Part shown: piece by piece, positions 2 to 18,700 of the stretch
How the letters are laid out: the number at the start of each line of letters is the position of its first letter
Position numbering within the stretch: the first letter of the stretch is position 1
Notes under the pieces: model-generated
What the model saw: only the letters and a program-made list of their open reading frames with translations
The model's database searches: none
Told to the model about the DNA's origin: nothing
Made by a program: the position numbers and the translations under genes
DNA from: an uncultured virus (IMG/VR IMGVR_UViG_3300030118_005288)
Taxonomy: Duplodnaviria > Heunggongvirae > Uroviricota > Caudoviricetes
Virus record (IMG/VR): IMGVR_UViG_3300030118_005288
Coordinates: 50,446 to 70,445 of that record
Length of the DNA: 20,000 nucleotides
Strand: one strand, 5' to 3'

Positions 2-3000
2 TTGTTAAGACCGTGGGATAATGTTCCTAGAAAAGCTTTAGCTCAAGAAATCGTTGGTAATAGATTAGTCTACGGTAACTATTTACAAAACTATAATCTT
101 TCAAATAACGCAACTGGTGATTCCAATATAAAAGTAGATTTAAAAGTAGGTATAAGATCTAGAAGTTTAGGTTCAATATCACCTGAAGAAGTAGAAGCTG
201 GTCCAAATAGACGTAGTATAAAATACAGTCCTAGTAAATCTTTAAAAACACTAAGAACATATCAGGTTGGTGTTGTTTATATAGACAAATATGGTAGAGA
301 AACACCTGTGTTTTCAGAAGACAAAAGAGGTAGAACAGCAACAGGTGCTGCAACTTCTCAAGCATCTGTTTATAACAAAAAAGAAAACGCAAACAAAAAA
401 AATAGTTTAACAGTAGAACTTAAAAACGATCCGCCAGACTGGGCTACGCATTTTAAACTATTTGTAAAAGAAACATCTAACGAGTATTACAATTTAGCAA
501 TGGATCGTTGGTACGATGCTGAGGACGGTAATATTTGGTTAAGTTTTCCGTCTGCAGAAAGAAATAAAGTAGATGAAGAAACATTTTTAATACTTAAAAA
601 AGCACATGACGCTAATACATTTATATCTGCTCCTGCTAGATATAAAATCATAGCAATATCTAACGAAGCGCCTAGGTTTATTAAACTTAGCAATATATCA
701 CAAGGTGGTATTATTGATGATGGTGCTACATTAGGCCTGTCTGCCGCAGGTTTTCCTTTAGAGGGCGGATTTTTTATATACGTAGAAAAAAGTAATTTTG
801 AAAATGTTGGCTGGAAAGAGTCTTTAGTAAATCAAGATATATCACAAGTTTTTATGAGGGTAAAGTCTGCCTCTGGTATAAGTGAATATTACAGACTAAA
901 GCAAATTACCTTTGACGCATCTACAGGTACTTATTATAAGTTAGAGTCTGATAGAGTTTTTGGACCAGACATGGCTCACACTTCGCCAGATGGTACTTTT
1001 TTAAACAGAATAACTAACTGTGAATTACAATTAATAAAAAGAATACCTGAAGACAAAGCAGAATTTGAAGGAAGATTTTTTGTAAAAGTTTTAAAAGACA
1101 ATATATTAATAGAGTCGTTAAATATAACACCTAACTCTGGTCTTGATTACATTGCTGTTGCAAGCATGCAAGTTCAGTACATAAATCCACTAGCAGCACA
1201 AGCAACTGGTGGTTGGGACGGTTTTGGTACTAATAAGTACAAAATATCTATGGACAAGCGTAATGATGATAGATGGACAAGGCCTGGTAGTAGTGCACCG
1301 GCTGGACATGGTCAAGATTTTTGGAAATACGCTAGTGACGATACAACAACAAACAACTCTAATTCTTTAGCTATTTCTAGTGGTTGGTTTATTGATGCTG
1401 TAGAAGGTTTTAGACCTTGGAAAGGTAATTATTGGGGTAAAAACGTGGGTGAAAGAAGTACAGGTGCTATAGACAGACCAAGTGCTTGGGCAGTAAATTT
1501 TTGCTGGGGCTTTTTTAGTAGTTACCACAATGATTTTGATGATGGTGAGTTTGATAGAAGATTACACGCTTTAGGTACAAACACTTATGGAACTACAGGT
1601 AACAATTATTTAGGTTCAAGTGGTTCAAAAAAAATGAAATCACCAAATAACGTACTAGCAACAACTCCTTCTGCTGATGGAGGACCAATAGCACCTGGTG
1701 TTGGTATAGATCCTAATAGTGGTATTATAAATTTATCTTATTCAGGTTTAAATGAAGACGATGGTGGTTTGACTGCAACATCTGGAAACTGGGCCGACGT
1801 ACTAACCACACATTATTTTGTTGATGCAGCTAAGCACGCTGCTGACGAACTTTTTATAGGTAAGCTTTTAACACCTGGTACTATATGGAGATGGAAAGAA
1901 GATCCAGATCAAGTTTTATATAAAACCGTGGCAATGACAGGTTTGTCTACAACATCAACTCCTTATACTAGTGCTCAATGGACTAATGAAGGTTTAGATT
2001 TTGATGGTAATCCTGGTATAGTTCTTTTTAATTATGTAAGCTTTGCAGATTATTTAATTAATAATCACACTCATAGAGTTGAATATTGCTGGGGTAGCGG
2101 AGATAAAGAAGATGACAAACCAGATTGGGTAACAAGAAATATTGGAAATCATACTGCTAGCGGTACGTGTTGTGGGGGTTGTATTCCTTGTGGTGGTGGG
2201 CTTGCTTGGACTTTAGTAAACACATCTTGCTCTATTACAGCTGGTACAGGGTGTGGTTGTAATCATACTGGTACATCTGGATCAAACGCTTGGGGACTTA
2301 TACCTAATTATCCTGAGCATTATAAATTTCCTAACCTTGTTGATGATTGGGCAAAATCAAAAAATAAAAGAAGAAGATTTAGATTTAAAGCAGAGACGTT
2401 AAGTGATCCTACAATACCACTTGGTGGTACTGGTCATAATTATTTACCAACAAATAATCCTACTTTTGCTCCACACTTTGATCATACAGCTACAGCTATA
2501 ACAATAGATCCTAGCACAAACGCTGCTTTTGTAGATCCAGCACCTGGCATTAGACCTGACGGTATGCACACTGGTTACACAGAACCTACTGGTAACTGGA
2601 CTTGGAATCCTGGAACCGGCTCAACAACAGAAACACTTATACCTCAATACAAAAGATGGAGCTCTGATAACATTGCTATAACACCAGCGCCTGGTAGTGT
2701 AACTTGGGAGATAGTAGAACCTTTCACACCTGGTGAAGGTAAATTTAGTAGCACTAACCCTGCTATATGGGAAACAGAACCTAAAGAAGATGTTGGTTTA
2801 GATATTTATTACGAAGTAGGTCATAAATACCCTATATACTTAAACGATAGAACAATAGAGCAATTTGTTGGCGCTGTACACGAAGACATTTCTAAAAACT
2901 CTTATGTGCAATGTTGGGATCCTGCGCCACCAATAGGTAACAGCGCTGGAACAATATCTTTAAATGCTGGTGGTAATAGCGATATGAGAGTTTACGCTGC

Positions 3001-6000
3001 GCATGGTAGGTTTGTTCAGCTAGCAGATACTTTAGGTAATGTTTTAGACGCTAACAACCCTGCACATATTTTACCTACTACAGGTGCTTATTTAATATTC
3101 TACAGAGCAGACGGAAGCACTACAGAAGCACATGTTGGTGTTGGTACATACAATAATAACGGTACTTGGTTTGAGTTAGTTGGTAACTCTTTTAATGATG
3201 ACGTTGGTGTTCATAGTAAAATGATAGAGGTGCCTTGGTTTAATTGTTACTCATTTGGTAATGGTGTTGAGTCTGATAGAATACGTGATGACTTTAACCA
3301 AGTTACAATAGACAATGGACCTAAAGCATCTACAACACTAGAAGAGCCTTATTTAGAAGATAGAAGAAAAAGTGGTTTTATATGGTCTGGTATATATAAC
3401 TCTAAAAGTGGTGTTAACAATTTAAACCAGTTTATACAAGCAGAAGCCATAACAAAAGACGCAAACCCTGTTTATGGTAGTATACAAAAAATGCATGTTA
3501 GAGATAATGACTTAGTTGCTTTTTGTGAAGATAGAGTGTTAAAAGTTTTAGCTAATAAAGATGCTTTATTTAATGCTGATGGTAATACAAATTTAGTTTC
3601 AACAAATAGAGTTCTTGGAAATATAAGACCTTTTGTTGGTGACTTTGGTATATCTCAAAATCCAGAATCTTTTGCAAGTGATTCTTATAGATCTTATTTT
3701 TCAGACACAAGTAGAGGCGCTATCGTTAGGCTATCTCAAGACGGATTAACAGCAATATCTAACTTAGGTATGAAAGACTGGTTTGCTGATAATCTACCTT
3801 CTTACAACAGAATTATTGGTAGTTTTGATGATAATAAAAACGAATATAACATAACATTAACTAAGGTAAATAAATCTGGTTATATTACTCCAAGTTATGG
3901 TTATATGCCTAAGACGTTATCTTTTAATGAACCTGCAAATGGTTGGGTTAGTTTTAAATCTTTTATAAAAGAAAGTGGTTTAAGTTTAAATAACTCTTAC
4001 TATACTTATTTTGAAGGTAATTTATATCAACATCATGACAATGAAATTAGAAATAATTTTTACAATGTTCAGTATGAGTCTAGTGTTGATGTTTTATTTA
4101 ACCAAGCACCTGGCGTAATAAAGAGTTTTAAAACTTTAAATTATGAAGGTACACAATCAAGAGTAACACCTGATTTAAATAACAACCCTGATTACTATGA
4201 TAATTATTTAAAGCAAGGTTGGTATGTAAACGAAATGATATCAGATGTTCAAGAGTTAGGTGTGATGGAGTTTTGGGACAAAGAAGACAAGTGGTTTAGT
4301 CAAATAAAAGGTGTTGCTACAGAGTGGTTAAATGATGGTACAGCTGGTAACATAGATCCTAGAGAGTTTTCTTTTCAAGGTATAGGTAATGCTTTTGACG
4401 TTGAGTGTGCTGACTGTCCAGATGTAGTTAGTTATGACTGTATAAATCAGCCAGCTGGATCTGTATCAGATTGTGATAATAGAACTTTACTTCCACTTCC
4501 TCCAGGGAACTACAATCCAGGTAACTATACTGTACACCCAGGTCATTTTAGAGATGAAGACTATTGGTTTTTACCAGGTAATGTTAACAAGAAAAGAAGT
4601 GATTATAAATTTATAGCTGGTCTACCAGGTACAAATAATGCGACTTACAACTCTCTTACACCAGGTTCTAATCCTGATTGGGTAGATCCAAACGATCAAT
4701 CACAAGGTTGGTACCAAAAATATGATGACATCCGTTTATACTCTTATGATTCTACACCTGTTTTATTATTTCAGTGTGATACTGTAGCAGAAATGATAAA
4801 CTGGGTTGCTACTAATTACGGATCGTTTTTCTCTAGTCCAAACGCAACTAACTTTCCAGCTCCATCTCCTGGAATGGCATATCAAAACTTTTGGGGTACT
4901 TGGTATGTAGCTTGGCACAATACGTCTTTTGTTCCAGCTGGCTCTAATGCAAACAGAAGAAACAGTCTTATATACACCTCTCCTTGTCAAAGAGTGTTTT
5001 CGCCTGGAGGTGCAAGGTGTACAGAAATACAAGGCCCTGGTGGTGCTTACGCTACAATGCAACAATGTATTGAGGGTGGTTGTGGACAGCCAGAAGAATC
5101 TTATAATTGTGATCCTCAAGCTGGTTGCGTTGATCCTGGAGATGGTACTGGTCAATTTTCTACTTATTGTGAGTGTGTTGAATCAAGGTGTTGTCCAGAA
5201 TCACAGGCATACTTTTTTGAATGTCAAAACATTAACCCGCCTTCAAACACGGCTATAGTTTTTGGTTGTATGGACGATGGTATTACAACTGATCCGTGGA
5301 TTACCCAAGATAGACCAGCTGGTTGGGTTGGTCCTGCTTCAAACTATTACGCTGGAGCTCAAGCTGATGATTGCAGTTGTATATACCAAACAGTTTCTAC
5401 TTGGGACTGTATAAACAGTAGTTGCGTAGAGGTGTTTAATGGTACTGGTCAATATCCATCACTTGCTGTGTGTCAACAAAATTGCGCACCACCTTGTGCG
5501 GGTCCTTTTGTTCCAACGCCACCTGCATTAACACATATAATAAGTAATAGGCCTGGTGGATGTAATTTAGGAGATTATTTTAATACTGGTGCGGCTGAAC
5601 TTGGTATAACAAACAATAGTATAAATCCTACTAATTGGTTTGTACAAGTGTTTGATAGTAATAATAACTTAATACACACGTCAGCTAATGTTTCTGGTGT
5701 TACTAGTATTATTGTTAACAATTTAGCACCTGGTATTTATACTTATAAGATTATTGATATTGATACTAATTGTGATTACGATTATACGTTTGAAATATTA
5801 TGCGAAGACCCACCGCCTCCACCACCTGTAACTTATGATTGTGTACTGGTAAATGGTATACATACTTGTGTAGATCCAGGTACTGGTAACGGGCAATATA
5901 CAGGGTCAAGCGCACTTACTGATTGTCAAACGGATCCAAACTCACCTTGTAATCCTAATTACCAAACAGGTGGTTGTACAGATCCTTGTGCTTGTAATTG

Positions 6001-7693
6001 GGATCCAAATGCTAATTATGATGATGGTAGTTGTATTTATGATTGTGATACCGGCGGTCTAACACTTTTTGATGCTAGTGTTGGTTACCAAAACCAATTA
6101 AACGCTGGTGTGTACACGGGCTCAGAAATAACTATAATTACAAATGCCTTGAACGGTCTTGTAAGTGCGTCTAATAGTACTGGTGGACCTACGACTTGTT
6201 ATGATTGTGGTGGTCCTGGTGTAAATTTACCTAACGAGCCATATTTTGTAAATAACGAGTCAATGATGGAGTCTTTTGTTCGTACTTATGGAATAGACAC
6301 GGATACAAGAGATTATAAGTTTTATAGAAGCCAAACTTATTTAAATCCTTCAATTAGAACCTATATGAATTTAAGAATTTCCCATATAGATCTTAATGGT
6401 TGGTACCAGCAACCTCAAAACTTCTTTACTTGGAGAGATTACATTGACACTGCTATTGCAACAGGAGTAATAACAAACGTGACAGATCTTATTGATGTTG
6501 GTTGTACTACTGGAACTTGTCAAACCGCACCTCATCAGTTTGACTCATCAACTGGTTATAGAATTGATTTAGATGCTGTAAGATATGTTATACATACTAG
6601 TATGGAAGCTGCTGGTGTTGAAACTTGTAATGGTATTATTAGTACTTATAATCAAAGTGGTCATGGTCAATATGACGATAAAAACTGCGATAGAACTAAT
6701 GTTACACTGTGTGATCCTTGTGTTGTTCCAGCTACAAATCCTTGTGGCCCACCGCCACCACAGACTACGTATCCTTGCATACCAGGTGACCCTAATTCTT
6801 GTATGCCGGGTTATACACCTTTAGGCCCTAACGTTTACACAAATCTTCAAGACTGTATAACAGCTTGCCATAGGATTGGTGTGGGTGAAGAACCTTTAAG
6901 TTATGATTGTATTAATGGAACATGTGTTGATCCTGGAACTGGTAATGGTCAATATGCTACATTAGCCGCTTGTCAAGCTGTTTGTAATATTAGTCCAGTT
7001 GGACAAAACTACGCATGTGAAGGTCCTGCTGGTTCTCAAAATTGTATTCCAACCTCTAGCCCTGTTGGTACTTACGGAAGTACAGTTGTATATGGTGACC
7101 AGGCAACATGTCTAGCTAATTGTGGTACGGTTAGTTCTACTGATATAGCGTGGGGAGGTTGTTGTCACCCATCTTCAATGGAGTACTCTCAACTTGGTCC
7201 TAATGGTCTTCCTTGTCACGCAGACAGCCTATGTCTTTGTTACTACGATCCGTTTCATTGTACTCTTCCAAATTGTTTTGTTGGTGACACTAAAGTGTTA
7301 TTAGCAGATGGTTCAAGTAAAAACATTGAAAATGTTGTGATTGGAGATATAGTAAGTTCTTACGATCAAGAAAACAAAGAGTTATCCGATGCTGTTGTAG
7401 TAGCTACACGATCGCAAGTTTCAAAAAACATGGTTGAATTTACTTTTAGCAACGGGGTTACAACAAAAAATACTTCGGACCACCCTTACTATGTAGAGCA
7501 AAAAGGTTGGGTATCATACGCAGATGATTTAAAAGTTGGCGATGTTTGCTATACTAATGAAAATAATAATATAAATAAAGTAACACTAACTAATATCAAA
7601 GAGGTTGATGGAGATAGTAAGACATACATATTTACACTCGATAGACACAAAACCTTCTTTGCAAACAGTGTGTTAGTTCACAATAAAGGATAA
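2..7693 (+). CDS. Tail stabilization/nozzle (muzzle)-like virion protein with Cys-rich repeat extension and C-terminal Hint domain (5'-truncated)
   Basis: Frame is open from the window edge, so the listed start is not the true start. Blocks DNVPRKALAQEIVGNRLVYGNY, RTYQVGVVYIDKYGRETPV, NCYSFGNGVESDRIRDDFN, GIYNSKSGVNNLNQF, YGSIQKM and FGISQNPESFA...YFSDTSRGAIVRLSQDGLTAIS match my recollection of crAss-like/flavophage 'stabilization' proteins. The core appears to end near EFSFQGIG (~4390). Confidence 0.75.
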   Translation: MLRPWDNVPRKALAQEIVGNRLVYGNYLQNYNLSNNATGDSNIKVDLKVGIRSRSLGSISPEEVEAGPNRRSIKYSPSKSLKTLRTYQVGVVYIDKYGRETPVFSEDKRGRTATGAATSQASVYNKKENANKKNSLTVELKNDPPDWATHFKLFVKETSNEYYNLAMDRWYDAEDGNIWLSFPSAERNKVDEETFLILKKAHDANTFISAPARYKIIAISNEAPRFIKLSNISQGGIIDDGATLGLSAAGFPLEGGFFIYVEKSNFENVGWKESLVNQDISQVFMRVKSASGISEYYRLKQITFDASTGTYYKLESDRVFGPDMAHTSPDGTFLNRITNCELQLIKRIPEDKAEFEGRFFVKVLKDNILIESLNITPNSGLDYIAVASMQVQYINPLAAQATGGWDGFGTNKYKISMDKRNDDRWTRPGSSAPAGHGQDFWKYASDDTTTNNSNSLAISSGWFIDAVEGFRPWKGNYWGKNVGERSTGAIDRPSAWAVNFCWGFFSSYHNDFDDGEFDRRLHALGTNTYGTTGNNYLGSSGSKKMKSPNNVLATTPSADGGPIAPGVGIDPNSGIINLSYSGLNEDDGGLTATSGNWADVLTTHYFVDAAKHAADELFIGKLLTPGTIWRWKEDPDQVLYKTVAMTGLSTTSTPYTSAQWTNEGLDFDGNPGIVLFNYVSFADYLINNHTHRVEYCWGSGDKEDDKPDWVTRNIGNHTASGTCCGGCIPCGGGLAWTLVNTSCSITAGTGCGCNHTGTSGSNAWGLIPNYPEHYKFPNLVDDWAKSKNKRRRFRFKAETLSDPTIPLGGTGHNYLPTNNPTFAPHFDHTATAITIDPSTNAAFVDPAPGIRPDGMHTGYTEPTGNWTWNPGTGSTTETLIPQYKRWSSDNIAITPAPGSVTWEIVEPFTPGEGKFSSTNPAIWETEPKEDVGLDIYYEVGHKYPIYLNDRTIEQFVGAVHEDISKNSYVQCWDPAPPIGNSAGTISLNAGGNSDMRVYAAHGRFVQLADTLGNVLDANNPAHILPTTGAYLIFYRADGSTTEAHVGVGTYNNNGTWFELVGNSFNDDVGVHSKMIEVPWFNCYSFGNGVESDRIRDDFNQVTIDNGPKASTTLEEPYLEDRRKSGFIWSGIYNSKSGVNNLNQFIQAEAITKDANPVYGSIQKMHVRDNDLVAFCEDRVLKVLANKDALFNADGNTNLVSTNRVLGNIRPFVGDFGISQNPESFASDSYRSYFSDTSRGAIVRLSQDGLTAISNLGMKDWFADNLPSYNRIIGSFDDNKNEYNITLTKVNKSGYITPSYGYMPKTLSFNEPANGWVSFKSFIKESGLSLNNSYYTYFEGNLYQHHDNEIRNNFYNVQYESSVDVLFNQAPGVIKSFKTLNYEGTQSRVTPDLNNNPDYYDNYLKQGWYVNEMISDVQELGVMEFWDKEDKWFSQIKGVATEWLNDGTAGNIDPREFSFQGIGNAFDVECADCPDVVSYDCINQPAGSVSDCDNRTLLPLPPGNYNPGNYTVHPGHFRDEDYWFLPGNVNKKRSDYKFIAGLPGTNNATYNSLTPGSNPDWVDPNDQSQGWYQKYDDIRLYSYDSTPVLLFQCDTVAEMINWVATNYGSFFSSPNATNFPAPSPGMAYQNFWGTWYVAWHNTSFVPAGSNANRRNSLIYTSPCQRVFSPGGARCTEIQGPGGAYATMQQCIEGGCGQPEESYNCDPQAGCVDPGDGTGQFSTYCECVESRCCPESQAYFFECQNINPPSNTAIVFGCMDDGITTDPWITQDRPAGWVGPASNYYAGAQADDCSCIYQTVSTWDCINSSCVEVFNGTGQYPSLAVCQQNCAPPCAGPFVPTPPALTHIISNRPGGCNLGDYFNTGAAELGITNNSINPTNWFVQVFDSNNNLIHTSANVSGVTSIIVNNLAPGIYTYKIIDIDTNCDYDYTFEILCEDPPPPPPVTYDCVLVNGIHTCVDPGTGNGQYTGSSALTDCQTDPNSPCNPNYQTGGCTDPCACNWDPNANYDDGSCIYDCDTGGLTLFDASVGYQNQLNAGVYTGSEITIITNALNGLVSASNSTGGPTTCYDCGGPGVNLPNEPYFVNNESMMESFVRTYGIDTDTRDYKFYRSQTYLNPSIRTYMNLRISHIDLNGWYQQPQNFFTWRDYIDTAIATGVITNVTDLIDVGCTTGTCQTAPHQFDSSTGYRIDLDAVRYVIHTSMEAAGVETCNGIISTYNQSGHGQYDDKNCDRTNVTLCDPCVVPATNPCGPPPPQTTYPCIPGDPNSCMPGYTPLGPNVYTNLQDCITACHRIGVGEEPLSYDCINGTCVDPGTGNGQYATLAACQAVCNISPVGQNYACEGPAGSQNCIPTSSPVGTYGSTVVYGDQATCLANCGTVSSTDIAWGGCCHPSSMEYSQLGPNGLPCHADSLCLCYYDPFHCTLPNCFVGDTKVLLADGSSKNIENVVIGDIVSSYDQENKELSDAVVVATRSQVSKNMVEFTFSNGVTTKNTSDHPYYVEQKGWVSYADDLKVGDVCYTNENNNINKVTLTNIKEVDGDSKTYIFTLDRHKTFFANSVLVHNKG
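4430..7123 (+). repeat. Dispersed Cys-rich protein repeats, consensus [ST][YW]xC-x(4-9)-C-x-DPGxGxGQY-x(5-8)-C-xxx-C (about 7 copies)
   Basis: Copies at ~4430/5018-5083 (split), 5099-5176, 5399-5485, 5831-5930, 6767-6868, 6899-6985 and 7007-7123. CVDPGTGNGQY is identical at 5867-5899 and 6923-6955. Confidence 0.85.
5264..6040 (+). repeat. Two GC[TM]D...A.N[YW]...A..DD.SCIY repeats
   Basis: GCMDDG...ASNYYAGAQADDCSCIY (5264-5386) and GCTDPCACNWDPNANYDDGSCIY (5972-6040). Confidence 0.8.
7274..7684 (+). other. Hint domain (bacterial intein-like / PT-HINT type), 137 aa, no endonuclease
   Basis: Block A CFVGDTKVLLADGSSKNIENVVIGDIV (Cys1 at 7274), block B TSDH (7472-7483), ADDLKVGD, and block F/G TYIFTLDRHKTFFANSVLVHN (His-Asn at 7679-7684), then K-G-stop. 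Confidence 0.93.
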
Positions 7694-7698
7694 TAGTT

Positions 7699-10356
7699 AT
7701 GATATATTTTTTTGGAAAATTACACCCTTATTTTTTAAGCCCTAAGCATTATAGCGGCCCAGCGCCTGCAAACGATGCTGGCGAAGGTGAAAACGAACAA
7801 CCTGCTATTGAACCTGCACTACCAAGTGAAGATCCTGCTGAAGACCCAGGTCCAGCTGAACCAGTTGAAGAGCCTGTTGTTGATGATGATGATGATGATG
7901 ATGGTGAAACGCCTAATGTTGATGATAACGACACGCCAAACCCTTATACTCCTCCTAAAATAAAAAAACCAAAGAAAAAGAAAAAAAAGAAACAACCTCC
8001 AAGACGTCCAAAACCTAAAAATTGTCCAGAGTGTATATGGGACGGTAAACAATGGGTAAGGCCTAAAACTGTAAAGCAAGACATCATAGAAACTAGTGGT
8101 GGTGAAAGAGTAGTATCTCCAATACAAAGTAAAGAAAAATTATACAAAACAATATCTTGTCCTTGTGGTTCTTATGCTATGTATGACTTTAATGGTGATA
8201 TAGCTTGTGAAAGAGATGCGTTTGGACTAAAACAGTATATAGCACCTACTCACATAGCTAACCATACGATAGGTGGACTTTCACCTACAATTGGTGATAA
8301 ATGGGTTTGCACAGGTGATTTTCACTGTCATCAAGATGATTTTAAGTTTGATACTTTTCACGTTGTTTTTGTAGAAGAAAATATTTCTGATGTTACAAGT
8401 TCTTTAGTTGATTCTTTAGTTTCTTTTTCTAATTGTTATATACCAAAAACATCTTTAAAAAATCTTCAAAATAGATTAAGTAGTAACACGCAGTATATAG
8501 ATGATTTTTTATTTAGTGAAAAAAATCCATTAGCATCTAAAGATGACGAACAACGAGGGTTTGACGATTTACCAGAAGGAATAGATTTTCTTAGAGACTT
8601 GCTTAAGTTTGATAAAAAAGTAAACGACGCACCAGTTTTTCCTACTTTTGCAAGAGCTTTACTTTGGGATAATATATATGGTCAAGGTTCTAACGTTTAC
8701 ACAGAATATATTAAAGACGGTATTGTAAATTATCTTCCTGGTTATCAAGACGTTAGCAATAAATATATATATAAAGTTTTTGTAAATAACAAAGATGTTT
8801 TAAAACTAAACGAATCAACAGCGTTCAACTATGTTTCTTACGAATCTCAAAAAGGTAGATTAATTTTAGATGCAATTGGTGGAGAGATAGTTATAAAACT
8901 TAACTCTATGGGTAAGGTTATAGTAGACATATCTATTGAAGATAGTTCTGGTTGTAATGTTTTAGACAAAAAAGCTAAGAATATAAGTTTTAACGGTGAA
9001 TACATATATAGATATAATATAGGTTCTTTACCCAAAAACAAAGCTAAAGAAATTTATAGTATAAAAATAACACCTAGTGCTGACACTTCGTTTTTTGCTG
9101 GTACAGAGTATTACAAGGGCAGCGTTTTAAACTACAAGGTTTATCAATATAAAGACCCAGTAGTTACTTTTGGAATACCAAGTGGCTCAATAACAAACGC
9201 TACTATAACCTCAACTAGTACTACTGTAACGGGTAAAACTAATAGATACTTTGAAGATCTACCTAATTATGCTCCGGTAGTACATGAAACAACAATAACT
9301 AGAAGTTCTGGTAGTGATAAATATTATAAAAAACCAAACATTATTTTTGAAAACATTATATCCAATACAGCTGTTATTAAAAAGCAAATTGTAGGTAGAA
9401 AAGTTAGCAACGAACTTGGTGAATGTTTAAGTGAGTTTATTGCTATTACAGCTCCATCTACAGACGGTTCAACAACATTTACAAACAGTGATATGGAGCC
9501 AGGTATGAGAGTTGAAGGTAAGCATACAGTAACTAAAACAATAACAAAAATTATTGATATTGAAGAGCATTTAAAAGAACCTTGCGATCATTGTGATAGA
9601 GATTTAGATATACTAACAAATAAAATTGAATTAGAAGATACTTATGATTTATATGTAGGCATGCTTGTTGAAGGTGTCGATACAAAAGGAGTAGAGTTTA
9701 ATACAGAGATATTGAGTATAGATTCTAATAAATGTATTGAGCTAACAACTCAACATCTTTTTGATTATTATTCTGATTTAACGTTTACTTATGAAGATGG
9801 TGGTGATATAATTGAAGTAAAAAATGATAATACTATAGTGTTAAACTCTTGTATAAAACTACCTAAAACAACAGTTCTTGACGTTTACAAGGCGTATAAA
9901 CCTAAAATTAACGCTTCAATGCATGTTGATAAAAGTGGTGATACTACCGTTAAAATAACAACGACTATTAATGATTTACACTTTAACAGTGATGATGTTA
10001 CTTTTTCTTTTGATGTCGGTGATATAATAACCACCAAACCAAACGCGCAAGATCAATATGTAACCGCTACTAAAGACGACACGACCGGTGCCAAAGGATT
10101 AACTTGTCTTATAGACTTTGTAAGAAACGATACTGATTATAATAAAGATAGCAAAGTTTTAACTATAACAAAAGAACCTAAAAGAGGTTCAATTGAAGGA
10201 ACAGGACCGGTTGACGGTGAAGGTACATTTACCAACACAAGAATTAAACTTTACACGCCAAACAAAGGTTTTGTTGGAACTGATACAATAAAATTTACAC
10301 TAGGAGATGGCGCAAACACTAGTGATGAAAAAACAATATATATAACAGTAAAATAA
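7699..10356 (+). CDS. Putative virion/tail accessory protein with acidic-then-basic low-complexity N-terminus and C-terminal Ig-like (Big_9/cadherin-like) domain
   Basis: 885-aa ORF starting 5 nt after the previous stop. The C-terminus (10036-10353) reads PNAQDQYV...IDFVRNDTD...TITKEPKRGSI...YTPNKGFVGTDTIKFTLGDG...TIYITV, the typical Big_9 pattern. Two GMxVEG motifs lie at ~9487-9519 and ~9646-9675. Confidence 0.7.
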   Translation: MIYFFGKLHPYFLSPKHYSGPAPANDAGEGENEQPAIEPALPSEDPAEDPGPAEPVEEPVVDDDDDDDGETPNVDDNDTPNPYTPPKIKKPKKKKKKKQPPRRPKPKNCPECIWDGKQWVRPKTVKQDIIETSGGERVVSPIQSKEKLYKTISCPCGSYAMYDFNGDIACERDAFGLKQYIAPTHIANHTIGGLSPTIGDKWVCTGDFHCHQDDFKFDTFHVVFVEENISDVTSSLVDSLVSFSNCYIPKTSLKNLQNRLSSNTQYIDDFLFSEKNPLASKDDEQRGFDDLPEGIDFLRDLLKFDKKVNDAPVFPTFARALLWDNIYGQGSNVYTEYIKDGIVNYLPGYQDVSNKYIYKVFVNNKDVLKLNESTAFNYVSYESQKGRLILDAIGGEIVIKLNSMGKVIVDISIEDSSGCNVLDKKAKNISFNGEYIYRYNIGSLPKNKAKEIYSIKITPSADTSFFAGTEYYKGSVLNYKVYQYKDPVVTFGIPSGSITNATITSTSTTVTGKTNRYFEDLPNYAPVVHETTITRSSGSDKYYKKPNIIFENIISNTAVIKKQIVGRKVSNELGECLSEFIAITAPSTDGSTTFTNSDMEPGMRVEGKHTVTKTITKIIDIEEHLKEPCDHCDRDLDILTNKIELEDTYDLYVGMLVEGVDTKGVEFNTEILSIDSNKCIELTTQHLFDYYSDLTFTYEDGGDIIEVKNDNTIVLNSCIKLPKTTVLDVYKAYKPKINASMHVDKSGDTTVKITTTINDLHFNSDDVTFSFDVGDIITTKPNAQDQYVTATKDDTTGAKGLTCLIDFVRNDTDYNKDSKVLTITKEPKRGSIEGTGPVDGEGTFTNTRIKLYTPNKGFVGTDTIKFTLGDGANTSDEKTIYITVK
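7882..7902 (+). repeat. (GAT)7 in-frame trinucleotide repeat encoding poly-Asp
   Basis: Seven consecutive GAT codons seen directly in the sequence. Confidence 0.9.
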
Positions 10357-12476: not shown

Positions 12477-12709
12477 ATGACAAAAGACGAAGTAATAGCT
12501 AACGCAAAAGCTCAAGGTGCGTCAGAAGAAGAATTACAAATATTAAGAAACACTCCAGACAGCGAGTACGGTAACGTTCCTTCTGTGGGAAAGACGAGCG
12601 ACATCACGTCAACAGGCGCGAATGTGATGTCGAGCAGTACAGCGTCAGAGAGTACGGGTTTAAATTTGGAACCTGGTTCTTCGGATTCTATAAAAGACAC
12701 GGTAGATAA
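12477..12709 (+). CDS. Predicted 77-aa transframe product of the giant gene (join of 12477-12593 and -1 frame 12593-12709)
   Basis: After ...PSVGK the -1 frame reads DERHHVNRRECDVEQYSVREYGFKFGTWFFGFYKRHGR then TAA (12707-12709). This frame is closed upstream by TAA at 12572-12574 and has no ATG/GTG/TTG of its own. Confidence 0.6.
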
Positions 12710-15700
12710 ATCACCACCACCAACATCTGAAGGGGAATTTAATAAAATTAACTATGGAGGTGATATTTATGGTTCAAGTCCTTATCAAGTTATAGATGAA
12801 AATGGTAATATAAAAAACGTATCGGCAGAAGAGTATTTAAAACTATATACAGACGAACAAAGACAATTAGATAATTTTTTAGATGCTAGAGATAGAGTTA
12901 AAAACCAATATTATGTAGATGCAAGTTATTTTGAAGGTAAGGTAGATGAAACAAAATTAAGAGAGCAATTAAATGTAAAACTAAAACCTTTAAATGTTAA
13001 AATTAAAGAAGTAGCCCCTGGTTTTGACGCCTTAGAGTTTACTTATAAAGACGGAACGGTAGAAGAAATTTCTTTTGATGATTGGGGTATTATTAATTAC
13101 GGAGCAGGTAAAGGTGGAAATGTAAATAGAGGTCAAGGCGCATTGACTAATCAAGAAAGAGCTGATTTTATAAATGATATTATTGACTCTCAAATAGATT
13201 ACTTATCAAATCCTGATAGCCCGGGTTATAGTGAAAACTTTGATTGGGGTATTTATTCTGGTGCTATGAACATGATGGGTGTTGGTGCTGGTAACGCAAA
13301 ACATAGAACTCTGATAAATGAAAACGCAATGATTCAGCTTCAATATGATTATGAAGATATGATGACTGAAGCGGTTGTTAACGGTAATTGGAAAGCAATG
13401 CTCGAGTCGGGTGATTTAACTTCTGATGAATTGATGAGAGTAAAAAATGCAAAGTACATAGATTTAATGGGTATGGTAATGGAGAGCGATAGATATAAAA
13501 CCGCTATGGCTCAAATAGAAGTTACTTTAAACGAGCTTAAAGGAAGCTTATTACAAGAAGTATTTAGCGAGTATAATCCAGAGCCTATATACGATCAAAA
13601 CGGTGTGTTAACTGGTTTTAAAGACGATGAAAACTGGGTAGCAGGTGCTGCCGCTATATTTGAAAAAAGATTTAAAGATTTAAGAGAAGACGTAATAAAC
13701 GGTAACTCTGAATTAAGAAAAATTATTGGTAGTATTGATTATGCTGTTAACAGTGTTTTTGACCCTGTAATACAAGACGTTTCTGCTTACGAAGGTCGTA
13801 TCGATAGATATGGAGAGTTTGTAGGTAGTAGCGATGTACTAAGCAACATTTGGAAGTTTATAGATTTAAAAGCGCCTATGCAGCTAAATCAGTTCAATGC
13901 TTTAAACAACAGCAACCAGAAGTCTATTTTGCTAAAGCAAAAGAACAGCTTTGCAGATTGGCAGAGCGGAAAAGGTGATAACGTTTTTAGAAACTGGATA
14001 GGTGCAGAATATAACATTGCAACACGGTTAGACCCAACTATACACTTAATAGAAGAACAAACAGATGCATTAGACGAATATGACAAGTTTCAATGGGATT
14101 ATACCACGTCTGGCATGCCGTTAAATAGAAGGTATAATTTTGATAGAGAGCAAATAGAAAAACAAGGTTATATAGATATACCTGTTTGGTTTGCGGAAAT
14201 GCCAACTGGAGATTATTTAGATAAATATAAAATACTAGGTAAGGCAGACCCTAGAAACGAAAACGCCATGTTTGGCGAAGAAGGTACAGGGTTTATGATG
14301 AACGTTAGGTTTGATAACTTAGAAGACGCATACAAAGAAATAGACAACCAGTACAAGTTGGTTGAAATAGCTTTAGACATGGAGATAATAGAAGACTTGA
14401 TGAAAGCTAAAGATTTTCAAAACACGTTAGGTGAGCTAACTTATTCAAACTCAGCGTTATATGATGAAAACGGTAACTGGAATGTAACAGCAGACAATTG
14501 GCAGGCTGCTTTAGGTGACACTGGTATGACTATGCTTGCTAGTATATTTACTGGTGGTATGTATACATTTTTAGCTGAATCTGGTGGTTTTTACATGGAA
14601 GCTTTAGAACAAGCGGGTATGGAAGAGTTTGGTGTAGACAGATGGAACAACATGTCATTGGAAGAAAAGAAAAGAGAACTGAACAATCTTATTGACACTA
14701 GACCAGAAATAATGAATAACGCATTTACAGTTGGTGGTGTTAACATGATGTTAGATAATGTTTCTAATTTATTTTTTATTGGTAAAGTTGGTAAACCAGT
14801 TATACAAAATCTACCTAAAGCTTGGGGTCTTTTAGTTAGAGGTAACGCAAAAGCAGCTGTTCAAAACTTAGGACTTAAAAGTGGTATAAAAAACGTTTCA
14901 ACCGCTACTTTAGTAGAAAGTTTTATAGAAGCAATGCAAGAAGAAAACACACAGTATCATTTAGGTAATACTATTGAAACTTATCAACATAGTTTTAACG
15001 GTACTATAAACTCTGGTGTTACAGCTTTGTTAACTACGCCTGTGTTTTTAGGTACTGGTAGCACGTTAAGTTCGTTTACAGGCGCTGTATACAATAAGGT
15101 AACAGCAATGAATGCTGAACCTGGTAAAATTATAGAGTTTTGTGACAACCAAAGAAAAGCTTTGTTAGACGCTAGAGCTAACGACAAAATAACACAAGAC
15201 GCTTTTGCAGAAAGAATGCAGCTTGTAGATGCTGTTCAAGAAACATTTGCTGGTCTTGGTAAAGAAAATGGTGGTTATACCGCTGATAGAATATGGAGTG
15301 ATTCACAAATAATTAAAGAGGTTTTTGAAACTCAAGCTTCTATAGAACAAAATAAAATACAGTTACAAAATCTAAACCAACAAAAACAAAAAGCTAAAAA
15401 AAGATTTGGACAAGATTATGCCTCTGATTTTGACAAGGTTAAAAATCAAGAACAGCTAGACGCTGCTATAAAAAGAATTACTTTTTTAGAGTACGAAAGG
15501 ACTAAATTAAATCATCTTAACGATTATAAAACAAAAACACTTACTAAGGCCGCTGAGATAAACAGTGACGCTAGCAATGGTTATACGGCTGTTGTTAAAA
15601 AAAATACACAAGACGCTGTTGCGTATTTAAAAAGTATTGGCTTAACAGATGAACAAATACAAACTGTTGGCGCTGCGTTTTTAAACGGAGAAGCAAACGC

Positions 15701-18700
15701 AATTATATTAAAGCCAGAGGAAGTACAAGCTTTGTTAGCAGAAAACGGAATAACTGGACCAGCTCAAGGCGTTGCCTTAATGAACGAGGCTACAATAGAG
15801 TCAAACATTAACCGTGGTAATGTTTTTAGTAGTAACACTATGCAACATGAGTTTGACCACGTAATATTGTCTACAAAAACAGATACTGAAATAAAAGATT
15901 TGTTAACAACGTTTGAAGAAACACTTAATAACTCTAGCGATCCACAAATGCAAGAGATTAAAAAAGTATATGACATAAGAGTAGAGCAGTATAGAAAGAA
16001 GTTTGGAAATAATTATTTAAGCACTAGAGCTGGTATGGAAGAGCTTATAACATCTATTGGTGATGCTATGAGCGCTGTACAAAACGGAGGTATTGTTAGT
16101 GAAACAACAACTGTTGATGGTAAAGAAATAACAAAACATAGTTTTTTACCTGGTGTTTTAACATCTGAAGGTAGACAGTCATTACAAATTATTGCTGACA
16201 AGTTACAAAGTATTTTATATGGTGAAACAAATACAGAAGTTAAAGTTGATCCTGTAAATATTATAAACTTCTTTTCTAATAATCCTTTTGCGTCTACTGT
16301 AGACTTTCAGCTACAAGATCAAGTTGTTATACTTGACGATGCTGGTAAGCCTATAGTTTCTAAAACCGCTAATTATAGTTTAGTAGGTGAAGGTGGTATG
16401 GACTTGCAGTTAGTTAGAGATGCGGCAAACATATACTACAAGCCTAACAGAGGTCAACAAGAAATAGTTGAAGAAAACAATAGGTTAGAACAAAAAATTA
16501 GAGAAGCAGAAGCTTTTACAAGTGAAGATAAAGACTTACAAGAAAGAGTTAGGGCTGGCGCAAGAAAGTGGAGAGAACAGTTAATGTTTAATAACTGGGG
16601 TGCTTTTGAAGAAGTACTTAAGTCATACGACAGAAGTAATGCCATGCACTCTACTTTAAACGAAGAAATGTTTAACGCTGAAAACTTAGAGTCTCTTGTA
16701 AAAGCTGTTATGGTTACATGGAAAGGTGAAATGCTAGATCCAAACACTGGTACGCTAAAGAAAGTTCCATTTGCTGCCTACTACTTTGGTAGCACAGATG
16801 GTAGGCCTAGTATAGCCCAAAGAAGACAAGCCGCTATATTTGACAAGCTTGATAAGGTGTTTAAACAAAGCTTAGACGAGATGGATATAGATGTTGATGA
16901 TAATACTAACACTATAAACGTACAAGACCAAGTTCAAGACAATGAGCAAAGATCTAAGCTAGTTCACACTATACCTGGTTTTGAGTGGAACGATGTTACA
17001 AAGAAAGGTAGTCAGGCGTATGAAAACTGGATTACTAAAGTTCAAGAGATCATGGTTACACAATATGATAATGTGTATGATAAAAACTTTAAGTCTATAA
17101 TACGTAAAGAAGGTAGAAAGTTTTTTAATCAACTTAAAAAAGATTTTGAAGGTGGTGTTATAAAAAATTATTTACCAACACAAAGTTATATAGATTTTAT
17201 AACAGAAAACGCAGAGCTTATATACGACCAACTACCTCAGAAAGTAATGAACGAAAACTTTACTGAGTTTACTGATATTATTTCAGAACGTATGTCTGCT
17301 GAAGAAGCAAAAATGCGTAAAGATTTAAAAACCGGTGATATATATTCTGGTACAAGCTTAAGAAAAAAGAAAGAGTTTACAGACGAGGTAAGAGCAGCAT
17401 TTTTAGAAAAACTATTAAAAACAAATCAAATAGCAGATCTTCAAGCTCAAGGTTTGAGTAACAAGGATATACACGATATAGTTAGAATGGATATGACAAC
17501 AAGAAGCACGTTGCAACATCTATCTGATATTTTGTTTAAAGATGCTGTTATGCAGGCTACAAATAATCCTGATTTTAAATCTGCTAACGGTATTGATCAG
17601 CAACAAATAATGCAAGCTGCTATGATGATTGATAGAGGTATGGATGTTAAGTTCTCTATAGTTGGTGATATGATACCTGGTGGTAAAGAGCAAACTCTTA
17701 GCGGTAGTTATGAAAGTACTTACTTGTTACAACAAATGAACTTAATACAAAGGTCTGTTTTACCTATGTATAAAAACGAAGAGGATGCTGATTTTATTAT
17801 AGACTTTATACAAAACAATGAGGCTTTTGAAAATGTACCTCAAGATATAAAAAACTTTGTAAGTAACTTGTATAGTTCTAAGTTAGTTATGGACGCAGAA
17901 ACAAGAGACTTTGTGCAATTTATAAAAACAAATGTGCCAGGTATAAGCAAAGATGTTTTATCTAACGTTGTAAACGTAAGTATAAGAGATAGAAAAGATA
18001 TAAAAGATAAAATGGTTCTTAACGCAAAAGAACTAATGACATCTTTACCTAGTGAGCTAGGTCCGTTTGTTTACGAAATGCTAGGCTTTAAAGGTGGTAG
18101 TAGATTTTTAGATATAACAGCAAAAGATAATAAAGGTGAATACTTACAGGATTTTGAAGATGTAAAGAGTTTATCTAAGTCAGCTGAGGAACTTGGTGTT
18201 ATTTTAGATTTTGACCCTAAAGATATATCTATATACAACAAGTCTACTCCTTTAAAAAGTAACGGTATATTTAAAGAGATTATAAATTTAAACCAACGTA
18301 TTGCTAAAGGTGAAATAACAAAAAGACAAGCACAAAGAATAATAGAGGAAACAAATTTAACAGATAGAATAGAAAAAGCTAACAAGGCTAACATGGGCGC
18401 TTTAAAACTTGTGTACAAAGCTATGGCTGTTAAATTAAAAGATGGTAAATTAGACGAAGCCGCTTTACTACAGTTGTTTAAGCTACAATCAAATTTAGTT
18501 GGTGGTTTTAGAGGGTTGTCAAGGTTAGACGGTTACAACTTGCTAGATGGTAAGTTTAAGTTTAATCCTAAAGACAAAGGCGTTACATGGACAGAAAACA
18601 GTAAAGGCGAAAAAGTAATTTTGTTTAAAGGTGAGCATGCTGCGTCTATGTCAAAGGTTGATGCTAATGTAATACAGTTAATGTATGATTATAAAGACGG

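Follow-up and report, generated by a model that had tools for sequence, protein, structure and literature searches.

The giant muzzle (tail-tip) protein of an uncultured crAss-type phage ends in a complete Hint domain followed only by Lys-Gly and a double stop; the probable role of this domain is to trim the host-contact appendage at its end or to activate that end chemically. The domain lies at 7274-7684 on the plus strand of the window, meaning the whole stretch of 20,000 nt that was analysed, which corresponds to positions 50446-70445 of the IMG/VR virus record IMGVR_UViG_3300030118_005288 (Caudoviricetes; 70,445 bp, 33.7% G+C, rated complete). Its family, fold and conservation lead us to read the 139 C-terminal residues of the muzzle protein, on balance, as a self-removing autoprocessing module of the bacterial intein-like (BIL) type, similar to A-type BIL domains. 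The novelty is in the setting, the end of a crAss-type muzzle appendage; Hint domains of the BIL type are already known.

Cys1 of the domain is encoded by TGT at 7274-7276 and is directly preceded by AAT for the Asn at position -1. Block B reads T-S-D-H, with Thr (ACT) at 7472-7474 and His (CAC) at 7481-7483, and the 137-residue domain closes with ...VLVHN, the terminal His-Asn being located at 7679-7684 and its Asn at 7682-7684. All elements of the Hint/BIL catalytic set, Cys1, the block B TxxH and the C-terminal His-Asn, were therefore found. After the terminal Asn come AAA GGA (Lys-Gly, 7685-7690), TAA (7691-7693) and TAG (7694-7696), so that C-flank and double stop together occupy 7685-7696 on the plus strand. 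In protein numbering these residues are C2890, T2956-S-D-H2959, H3025-N3026 and K3027, with Asn2889-Cys2890 as the predicted scissile bond, and the C-terminus reads ...HCTLPN / CFVGDTKVLL...NTSDHPYYV...KTFFANSVLVHN / KG, then TAA TAG. The +1 residue is Lys and not Cys, Ser or Thr; a nucleophile is lacking at this position, as in BIL domains, and there is no +1 nucleophile with a ligated C-extein as in class 1 inteins. The original prediction, made from the sequence alone, had described a Hint domain with these coordinates and catalytic residues, with Lys at +1 and an end two residues later at TAA TAG, and was exact on each of these points.

Read-through or frameshifting into the next gene was rejected because the stop is TAA in all homologues (doubled in two) and the next ATG is located 8, 14 and 15 nt from the first stop base among homologues, which places it in different frames. 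No foreign-DNA signature was found in base composition, the G+C fraction of the Hint region being 0.331 compared to 0.366 +/- 0.038 for 417-nt windows of the gene.

Profile searches placed the domain in several Hint families including Pfam PT-HINT (PF07591; E 3.4e-11, 44 bits against a cut-off of 27.7, covering profile positions 5-136 of 137), Pfam Hint (PF01079; 38.7 bits against 29.7) and the NCBIfam model intein_Nterm (33.3 bits against 24.5). The top match among PDB sequences was 2lwy, a BIL domain of Clostridium thermocellum (E 2.9e-11), and 8w20, a protein of the rearrangement hotspot (RHS) type, was also among the best. An AlphaFold2 model of the last 197 residues, built from a 27-sequence alignment, had 133 residues with a predicted local distance difference test (pLDDT) score of at least 90, and its 58-residue N-flank was ill-defined (pLDDT 39-63 in the pre-Hint module described below). 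The Hint fold was recovered when this model was searched with Foldseek, where 6y75, the BIL2 domain of a Tetrahymena BUBL protein, ranked first (E 3e-12, target TM-score 0.85, root-mean-square deviation 1.6 Å), 2lwy had a target TM-score of 0.90 and mini-inteins and the Hedgehog autoprocessing domain 1at0 (E 2.3e-9) came next, the matches spanning E 3e-12 to 2e-9. These matches are far beyond chance: the stretch 7274-7684 is a real and complete Hint domain, and within the Hint superfamily its place is in the BIL branch, where it is A-type-like.

The Pfam family AXH (Ataxin-1/HBP1 module, PF08517) also exceeded its cut-off (38.5 against 33 bits) at 7274-7540. AXH matches the N-terminal half of such Hint domains and reaches up to 133 bits in relatives, so that proteins of this kind annotated as AXH probably carry Hint domains instead.

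The gene that carries the Hint extends from 2 to 7693 on the plus strand of the window, which holds its 3' 2563 codons and the stop. The full gene has 3028 codons (genome positions 49052-58138) and its 5' end lies upstream of the window. Its product matched Pfam crAss_MUZ (PF25731, 54.5 bits) and crAss_MUZ_C (PF25729, 38.7 bits), each with a cut-off of 27, and phrog_14478, annotated as a virion structural protein (E 3.7e-83). The crAss_MUZ_C domain at 4046-4309 on the plus strand (residues 1349-1436 of P0001) marks the end of the conserved muzzle core. The gene closes the head-tail module, coming after terL and the portal, major capsid and tail genes, as is expected of a muzzle gene, and the eight consecutive genes from terL to the muzzle gene are colinear with those of Cellulophaga phage Calle_1 (Pervagoviridae) at 25-39% identity. 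The nearest cultured phages by muzzle core were marine Flavobacteriia phages of Cellulophaga, Tenacibaculum, Flavobacterium and Maribacter (32-38% identity). From these comparisons the carrier is identified as the crAss-type muzzle protein of a marine podophage related to Calle_1, and the relatedness of the phages makes marine Flavobacteriaceae the likely hosts. The original prediction described the carrier as a phage tail protein; by its crAss_MUZ and crAss_MUZ_C matches it is a crAss-type muzzle rather than a generic tail protein.

In PhicrAss001 the muzzle protein gp44 forms a hexamer closing the tail tip and is proposed to be a gatekeeper that probably contacts the cell surface, and muzzle length varies among crassviruses, as described by Bayfield et al. 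2023 (PMC10172136), a paper in which the words "Hint", "intein" and "cleav" are absent. The hexameric assembly is known for gp44 only. Both crAss_MUZ and crAss_MUZ_C are shared with the muzzle protein studied here, and a phmmer search of the latter against PDB sequences did not reach gp44. Unlike gp44, the protein studied has approximately 1100 extra C-terminal residues and a Hint, and its phage is nearer to the Pervagoviridae than to the gut crassviruses. A similar difference was found for the Calle_1 homologue, which has 1324 residues and ends approximately 125 residues past the crAss_MUZ_C region, the muzzle protein studied continuing for approximately 1100 residues more at the C-terminal side.

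The added region is a variable Cys-rich C-terminal extension at 4394-7150 on the plus strand (residues ~1930-2848 of P0002), in which no Pfam family was found at E <= 0.01. The last 1100 residues of the protein include 65 Cys, and the extension contains repeated Cys modules of approximately 30 residues with the pattern Y-D-C-x-N-G-x-C-x-D-P-G-x-G-x-G-x-Y...C...C. Module content differs between related giant muzzle proteins, so that the Hint is situated in a variable region of a non-conserved protein, as BIL domains are. The extension is hypervariable and probably host-contacting. It also contains the motif GGCTDPCACNWDPNA.YDDGSCIY, and this motif and the Cys modules are common to other giant muzzle proteins and to Flavobacteriales proteins sorted by the type IX secretion system (P0162, P0169).

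Between the extension and the Hint is a 41-residue Cys/His-rich module found by motif search at 7151-7273 on the plus strand (WGGCCHP...CH.D..C.C..DPF.CTLP-N). Its CCHP and CT[LM]P motifs were present in four of the four Hint-bearing muzzle proteins searched and in none of ten Hint-less ones; the variant in the distant locus L016 described below is GGCCDP...CLPP, and the unrelated 282-residue protein P0077 has a similar module before its own Hint (41% over 66 residues). Because the module occurs only with a Hint in muzzle proteins and a similar one precedes the Hint of P0077, the two look like one cassette, which would have been gained once in the muzzle clade. The conserved Cys at position -5 (C-T-L-P-N-C) might conceivably pair with Cys1, in which case the reaction would depend on redox conditions.

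Six muzzle lineages with a terminal Hint were identified, 34-98% identical over the C-terminal region. Searches with this region gave P0003 (98% identity) and P0004, P0005 and P0006 (51-55%), all of which end CTLP[NTS] / CFV...T.DHP...LVHN / K[GAQ]. Scans of IMG/VR and metagenomes yielded further copies of known lineages in addition to lineages L015 and L016, and also locus L017. L015 (50% identity) has a 1-nt frameshift within the Hint in that contig (L015:3060-3140); past the frameshift the frame still reads ...FFANNILVHNKQ, then two stops. L016 is a distant syntenic locus (34-38% identity) with homologues of the next three genes downstream, and its muzzle open reading frame (ORF) ends ...CLPPITT / CFVAG...TSEHP...YLVHN / K plus 10 residues.

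Over the five intact lineages, whose Hints are 38-60% identical to the one studied, 31 of the 139 Hint positions are invariant, including C1-F-V, T..H-P and L-V-H-N-K. The degeneration of catalytic residues in homologues, named in the original prediction as grounds for giving it up, was therefore not seen, as C1, T..H and LVHN-K are unchanged down to 38% identity. The +1 Lys is likewise invariant in the muzzle clade, with G, A or Q as the last residue or, in L016, the 10-residue tail. At most 11 residues follow His-Asn in any of the six lineages, which bears out the claim that there is no toxin or extein to release.

Ten related giant muzzle proteins without a Hint were also found (P0163, P0164, P0165, P0170-P0173 and the muzzle ORFs of L024-L026), absence being taken as no phmmer domain at E < 2 for the P-series and no BLAST match for the L-series. 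These proteins terminate in a VWA domain (P0164), an Ig-like repeat (L024) or more Cys modules, and the muzzle proteins of the closest cultured relatives also have no Hint. Class 1 inteins are insertions in a conserved site with contiguous intein-less alleles; the muzzle Hint is at the extreme C-terminus and the Hint-less termini are unrelated to it. A tree of the conserved core united the four Hint-bearing proteins in one group with a single label change (support 90/91, below the tool's starred threshold) and placed the Hint-less P0164 as the sister of that group.

No cultured phage with the same arrangement was found in a tblastn search of the Hint against 50,697 phage records, in which four records matched: two Ruminococcus phages (hypothetical proteins) and two copies of one Acinetobacter phage (a terminase intein). 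Literature searches turned up no publication that describes a Hint within a muzzle protein or within a tail-tip protein of a phage. Many phage proteins in BFVD are annotated only as Hint domain containing, some of them with fibronectin or collagen repeats, and therefore Hints that are not inteins exist in databases on phage proteins that look structural; literature searches found no study of such proteins.

The muzzle Hint is part of a large and unstudied subfamily of terminal and tandem domains marked by His-Asn-Lys. A HMMER search with the 139-residue domain against 1.84 billion representative proteins gave 8236 proteins at E <= 1e-3, and the following counts were taken from the best 150 of these, a set that favours multi-Hint proteins because it was ranked by whole-protein score. 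With the muzzle clade set aside, it comprised 148 proteins and 292 domains complete on the C-side; with the muzzle relatives included there were 304 complete domains. At least two Hint domains were present in 122 of the 148 representatives, and tandem Hints were mostly separated by linkers of 1-6 residues (K, KG, KGG) and then Cys. Lys-Gly was the commonest dipeptide after His-Asn (91/292), forty-eight of the 148 proteins ended within 5 residues of His-Asn and sixteen ended exactly ...HN-K. Including the muzzle relatives, the +1 residue was Lys in 197/304 complete domains, the HN end was present in 280/304 and the first residue was Cys in 324 of 328 domain starts. These flank and terminal counts make Lys-Gly followed by a stop the family norm and no oddity of this gene. 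The original prediction was correct that Lys-Gly is the only C-flank; as the consensus flank of the subfamily, it is nothing special.

Tandem arrays of this Hint type are found in many metagenomic proteins (among P0012-P0160), with up to eight matched stretches in P0012. Why self-cleaving domains should form arrays has, to our knowledge, not been explained. A recurrent family of approximately 750 residues starts MKGTLFSADF...RLLE[IL]NTDT and has two Hints at its end, mostly with HN-K-stop, and no Pfam family was found before residue ~450; it includes P0018, P0027, P0040, P0050, P0063, P0094, P0095, P0100, P0111, P0122, P0139, P0144 and P0160 as well as locus L017.

A scan of one genome per prokaryotic species confirmed 196 relatives; 79 loci were retained and 28 of these inspected, with one of the latter (L102, an SR1 bacterium) left out of the counts. 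At all 22 Flavobacteriales loci inspected, from genera including Aquimarina, Dokdonia, Tenacibaculum, Polaribacter and Flavobacterium among others, the ORF stopped 1-14 residues past a +1 Lys or Arg (Glu in one, which ends HS-E). Three of the seven Flavobacteriales proteins scanned with Pfam were RHS-repeat proteins. In other lineages, the ORFs of two Woesearchaeota and one Thermoplasmatales continued past the Hint to the end of the locus (in Thermoplasmatales straight into another Hint), a Legionella ORF had 435 residues more after the Hint and a Planctomycetia ORF stopped 19 residues after it. The terminal form without cargo thus predominates in the probable host lineage of the phage. The long proteins of marine Flavobacteriaceae (L031-L066) have a Hint and 1-14 further residues at the end, the place at which one would expect a toxin domain, with approximately 250-300 unannotated residues directly before the Hint.

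Several known systems resemble the muzzle Hint in part. The A-type BIL domain of C. thermocellum (PDB 2LWY) is the best sequence match (E 2.9e-11; target TM-score 0.90), and has Cys1, TxxH and terminal His-Asn with no +1 nucleophile; according to PMC7765530, such domains are situated in variable regions of non-conserved proteins. The muzzle Hint differs from it in that it ends the protein, with only Lys-Gly after it and no C-flank protein to cleave or splice, and in being on a phage tail-tip protein, where its activity is predicted. BIL domains without a +1 nucleophile mainly give N- and C-cleaved products (PMC7664689; PMC7765530), and for some A-type domains splicing by another pathway is described (PMC7664689; PMC7765530; PMC5874633). 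The general premise of the original prediction, that Hint and BIL domains lacking a +1 nucleophile self-cleave, is upheld by PMC7664689.

The best fold match was BIL2 of Tetrahymena thermophila BUBL1 (6Y75, 6TMM; E 3e-12), for which the depositors report (PMC8616854) that the thioester is resolved by a Lys amine (epsilon-NH2 to C-terminus isopeptide) and that the ubiquitin-like domain is conjugated to substrates. In contrast to the muzzle Hint, BUBL1 BIL2 is eukaryotic, flanked by ubiquitin-like domains and only 22% identical, and in the BUBL-like representative P0054 the +1 residue is S or A, not Lys, and is followed by ubiquitin-like sequence.

Pretoxin HINT (PF07591) is the top Pfam family (44 bits) and has relatives in RHS-repeat proteins. 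In polymorphic toxins the HINT directly precedes the C-terminal toxin and sets it free (Zhang et al. 2012, PMC3482391), whereas two residues and no toxin follow the muzzle Hint. The Hedgehog Hog domain (PDB 1AT0; E 2.3e-9) has the Hint fold and is likewise a C-terminal domain acting at its own N-terminal bond, with the upstream part as the functional product. The muzzle Hint, unlike Hog, has no sterol-recognition region and still ends in His-Asn as inteins do; according to PMC5874633, only Hedgehog carries out cholesterol transfer.

The resemblance to a further group of phage modules is one of outline. Tail fibre and tailspike proteins can carry C-terminal intramolecular chaperones of the Peptidase_S74 type (T5 L-shaped fibre, K1F endosialidase), which are self-removing modules with a Ser-Lys dyad. 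These are also C-terminal, self-removing modules of host-recognition proteins, but their fold and chemistry are unrelated to the muzzle Hint (Ser-Lys dyad compared to Cys thioester) and no sequence or fold match between the two was seen.

Under the self-removal reading that we favour, the Hint and the small Cys/His-rich pre-Hint module would have been added to the end of the hypervariable muzzle extension. Cys2890 would attack the Asn2889-Cys2890 bond in an N-to-S acyl shift, helped by the block B Thr and His, and the resulting thioester would be resolved by water or a thiol, so that the mature muzzle protein would lose its Hint. The other possibility follows the BIL manner: Asn3026 would cyclise, Lys-Gly would be freed and its amine would re-join the muzzle end. 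Both routes would have the same net outcome, the self-removal of a C-terminal module with no cargo, after which the muzzle protein would have either a free end or one re-capped by Lys-Gly. Because nothing follows the Hint, Asn2889-Cys2890 would be the only meaningful bond, which favours a thioester at this position and release of the Hint. We infer the chemistry running in this protein and the nature of its product; the fold, the set of catalytic residues, their conservation, the terminal position and the family have been established here.

Several points weigh against self-removal. Cleavage in this protein is deduced from its family membership. None of the ten Hint-less relatives ends at the predicted cut site, and the support that relatives stopping at the cut would have lent is absent because they end in other modules instead. 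The frameshift in L015 may be a sequencing error, or it may mark a decaying or dispensable domain. Simple self-removal also leaves the conservation of the terminal His-Asn-Lys unexplained, as C-side cleavage would free only one or two residues; a reaction using both junctions would explain why it is kept.

Such a reaction is part of a possible, although unlikely, alternative, in which the Hint activates the muzzle C-terminus as ...CTLPN-thioester for transfer to a nucleophile such as an amine. Candidate acceptors are the side chain of the +1 Lys (which would give an isopeptide "splice"), a Lys in an adjacent muzzle subunit or in a different virion protein, and a molecule on the host surface, with a covalent bond at the tail tip as the result. 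The closest solved fold, BUBL BIL2 (6y75), is consistent with this through the Lys isopeptide splicing and ubiquitin-like conjugation reported in PMC8616854, yet this precedent is eukaryotic and has the low identity given above. The +1 Lys, a hallmark of the subfamily and fixed in the muzzle clade, and the retention of His-Asn where nothing is released also fit ligation. On the other side, no partner was found, the 885-residue gene next to the muzzle gene is located beside Hint-less muzzle genes as well (3/3 loci), a sterol- or adduct-recognition region is absent and only two residues follow the Hint. A stronger form, in which the +1 Lys takes the place of the Cys/Ser/Thr nucleophile of inteins, it or another of these acceptors captures the Asn2889 thioester, cyclisation of Asn3026 then releases the Hint and Lys-directed ligation is family-wide, we consider quite unlikely. 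The original prediction had proposed both ligation and a self-removing maturation module; this interpretation is partly supported and the sequence observation beneath it is confirmed.

The conservation data fit poorly with either an inactive domain that is retained or a decayed toxin cassette. In the former, the Hint would be a structural or binding module on the virion that does not cleave, its catalytic residues being kept for folding or through recent acquisition. Hint-like folds can be binding modules, the AXH family passes its cut-off here and cleavage of the muzzle protein is a deduction, yet none of the catalytic positions changes across the lineages, in which 78% of Hint positions do, and the same residues are kept in thousands of distant relatives, so that we regard retention without cleavage as rather improbable. 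A polymorphic-toxin cassette in which a PT-HINT has lost its C-terminal toxin and is now functionless would agree with PT-HINT as the best Pfam family and with the close cellular relatives in Flavobacteriaceae RHS-repeat proteins. However, the catalytic residues are conserved, and all six muzzle lineages and all 22 Flavobacteriales loci end at most 14 residues past the +1 position (15 past His-Asn), which makes the toxin-less terminal form the rule and not decay; a toxin remnant is very improbable.

The 885-residue gene follows the muzzle gene at 7699-10356 on the plus strand and has a Big_9/cadherin-like C-terminal domain (Pfam Big_9, 34.4 bits). Homologues were found after every giant muzzle gene examined (six full loci and L016), both Hint-bearing and Hint-less, with varying frame and spacing relative to the muzzle stop, and no match was found in the Calle_1 region examined (tblastn, E <= 1e-5). 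The gene was considered as a Hint-specific ligation partner and rejected, as the homologues after the three Hint-less giant muzzle genes are 30-32% identical to it. It is possibly a second distal tail component. An ORF of 2508 codons at 12477-20000 on the plus strand runs off the record end at a whole number of codons, and at the other end of the record frame 1 stays open from the first base to 2187. In a circular genome, or one that is circularly permuted with no overlap, this ORF and record positions 1-2187 would be a single gene of approximately 3236 codons. The ORF at 12477-20000 matched no PDB sequence and reached the cut-off of no Pfam family.

CrAss-type phages are among the most abundant viruses known, and their muzzle proteins close the tail and probably make the first contact with the host. 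A terminal Hint in this position suggests that the tail tip is modified after translation, by trimming or by covalent ligation, as it assembles or attaches. Many surface and RHS proteins of the likely host lineage also terminate in this His-Asn-Lys-stop module, which is found in tandem arrays elsewhere, and therefore a single cleavage or ligation assay would inform a large and unstudied branch of the Hint superfamily; the Hint might also yield a new protein-ligation tool. If Lys capture were true, the tail tip would have an isopeptide-linked end or cross-link made without ATP or an enzyme, and the thousands of Hints with His-Asn-Lys, among them those in tandem arrays and those that terminate Flavobacteriaceae RHS proteins, would be a so far unrecognised family of Lys-directed ligation domains.

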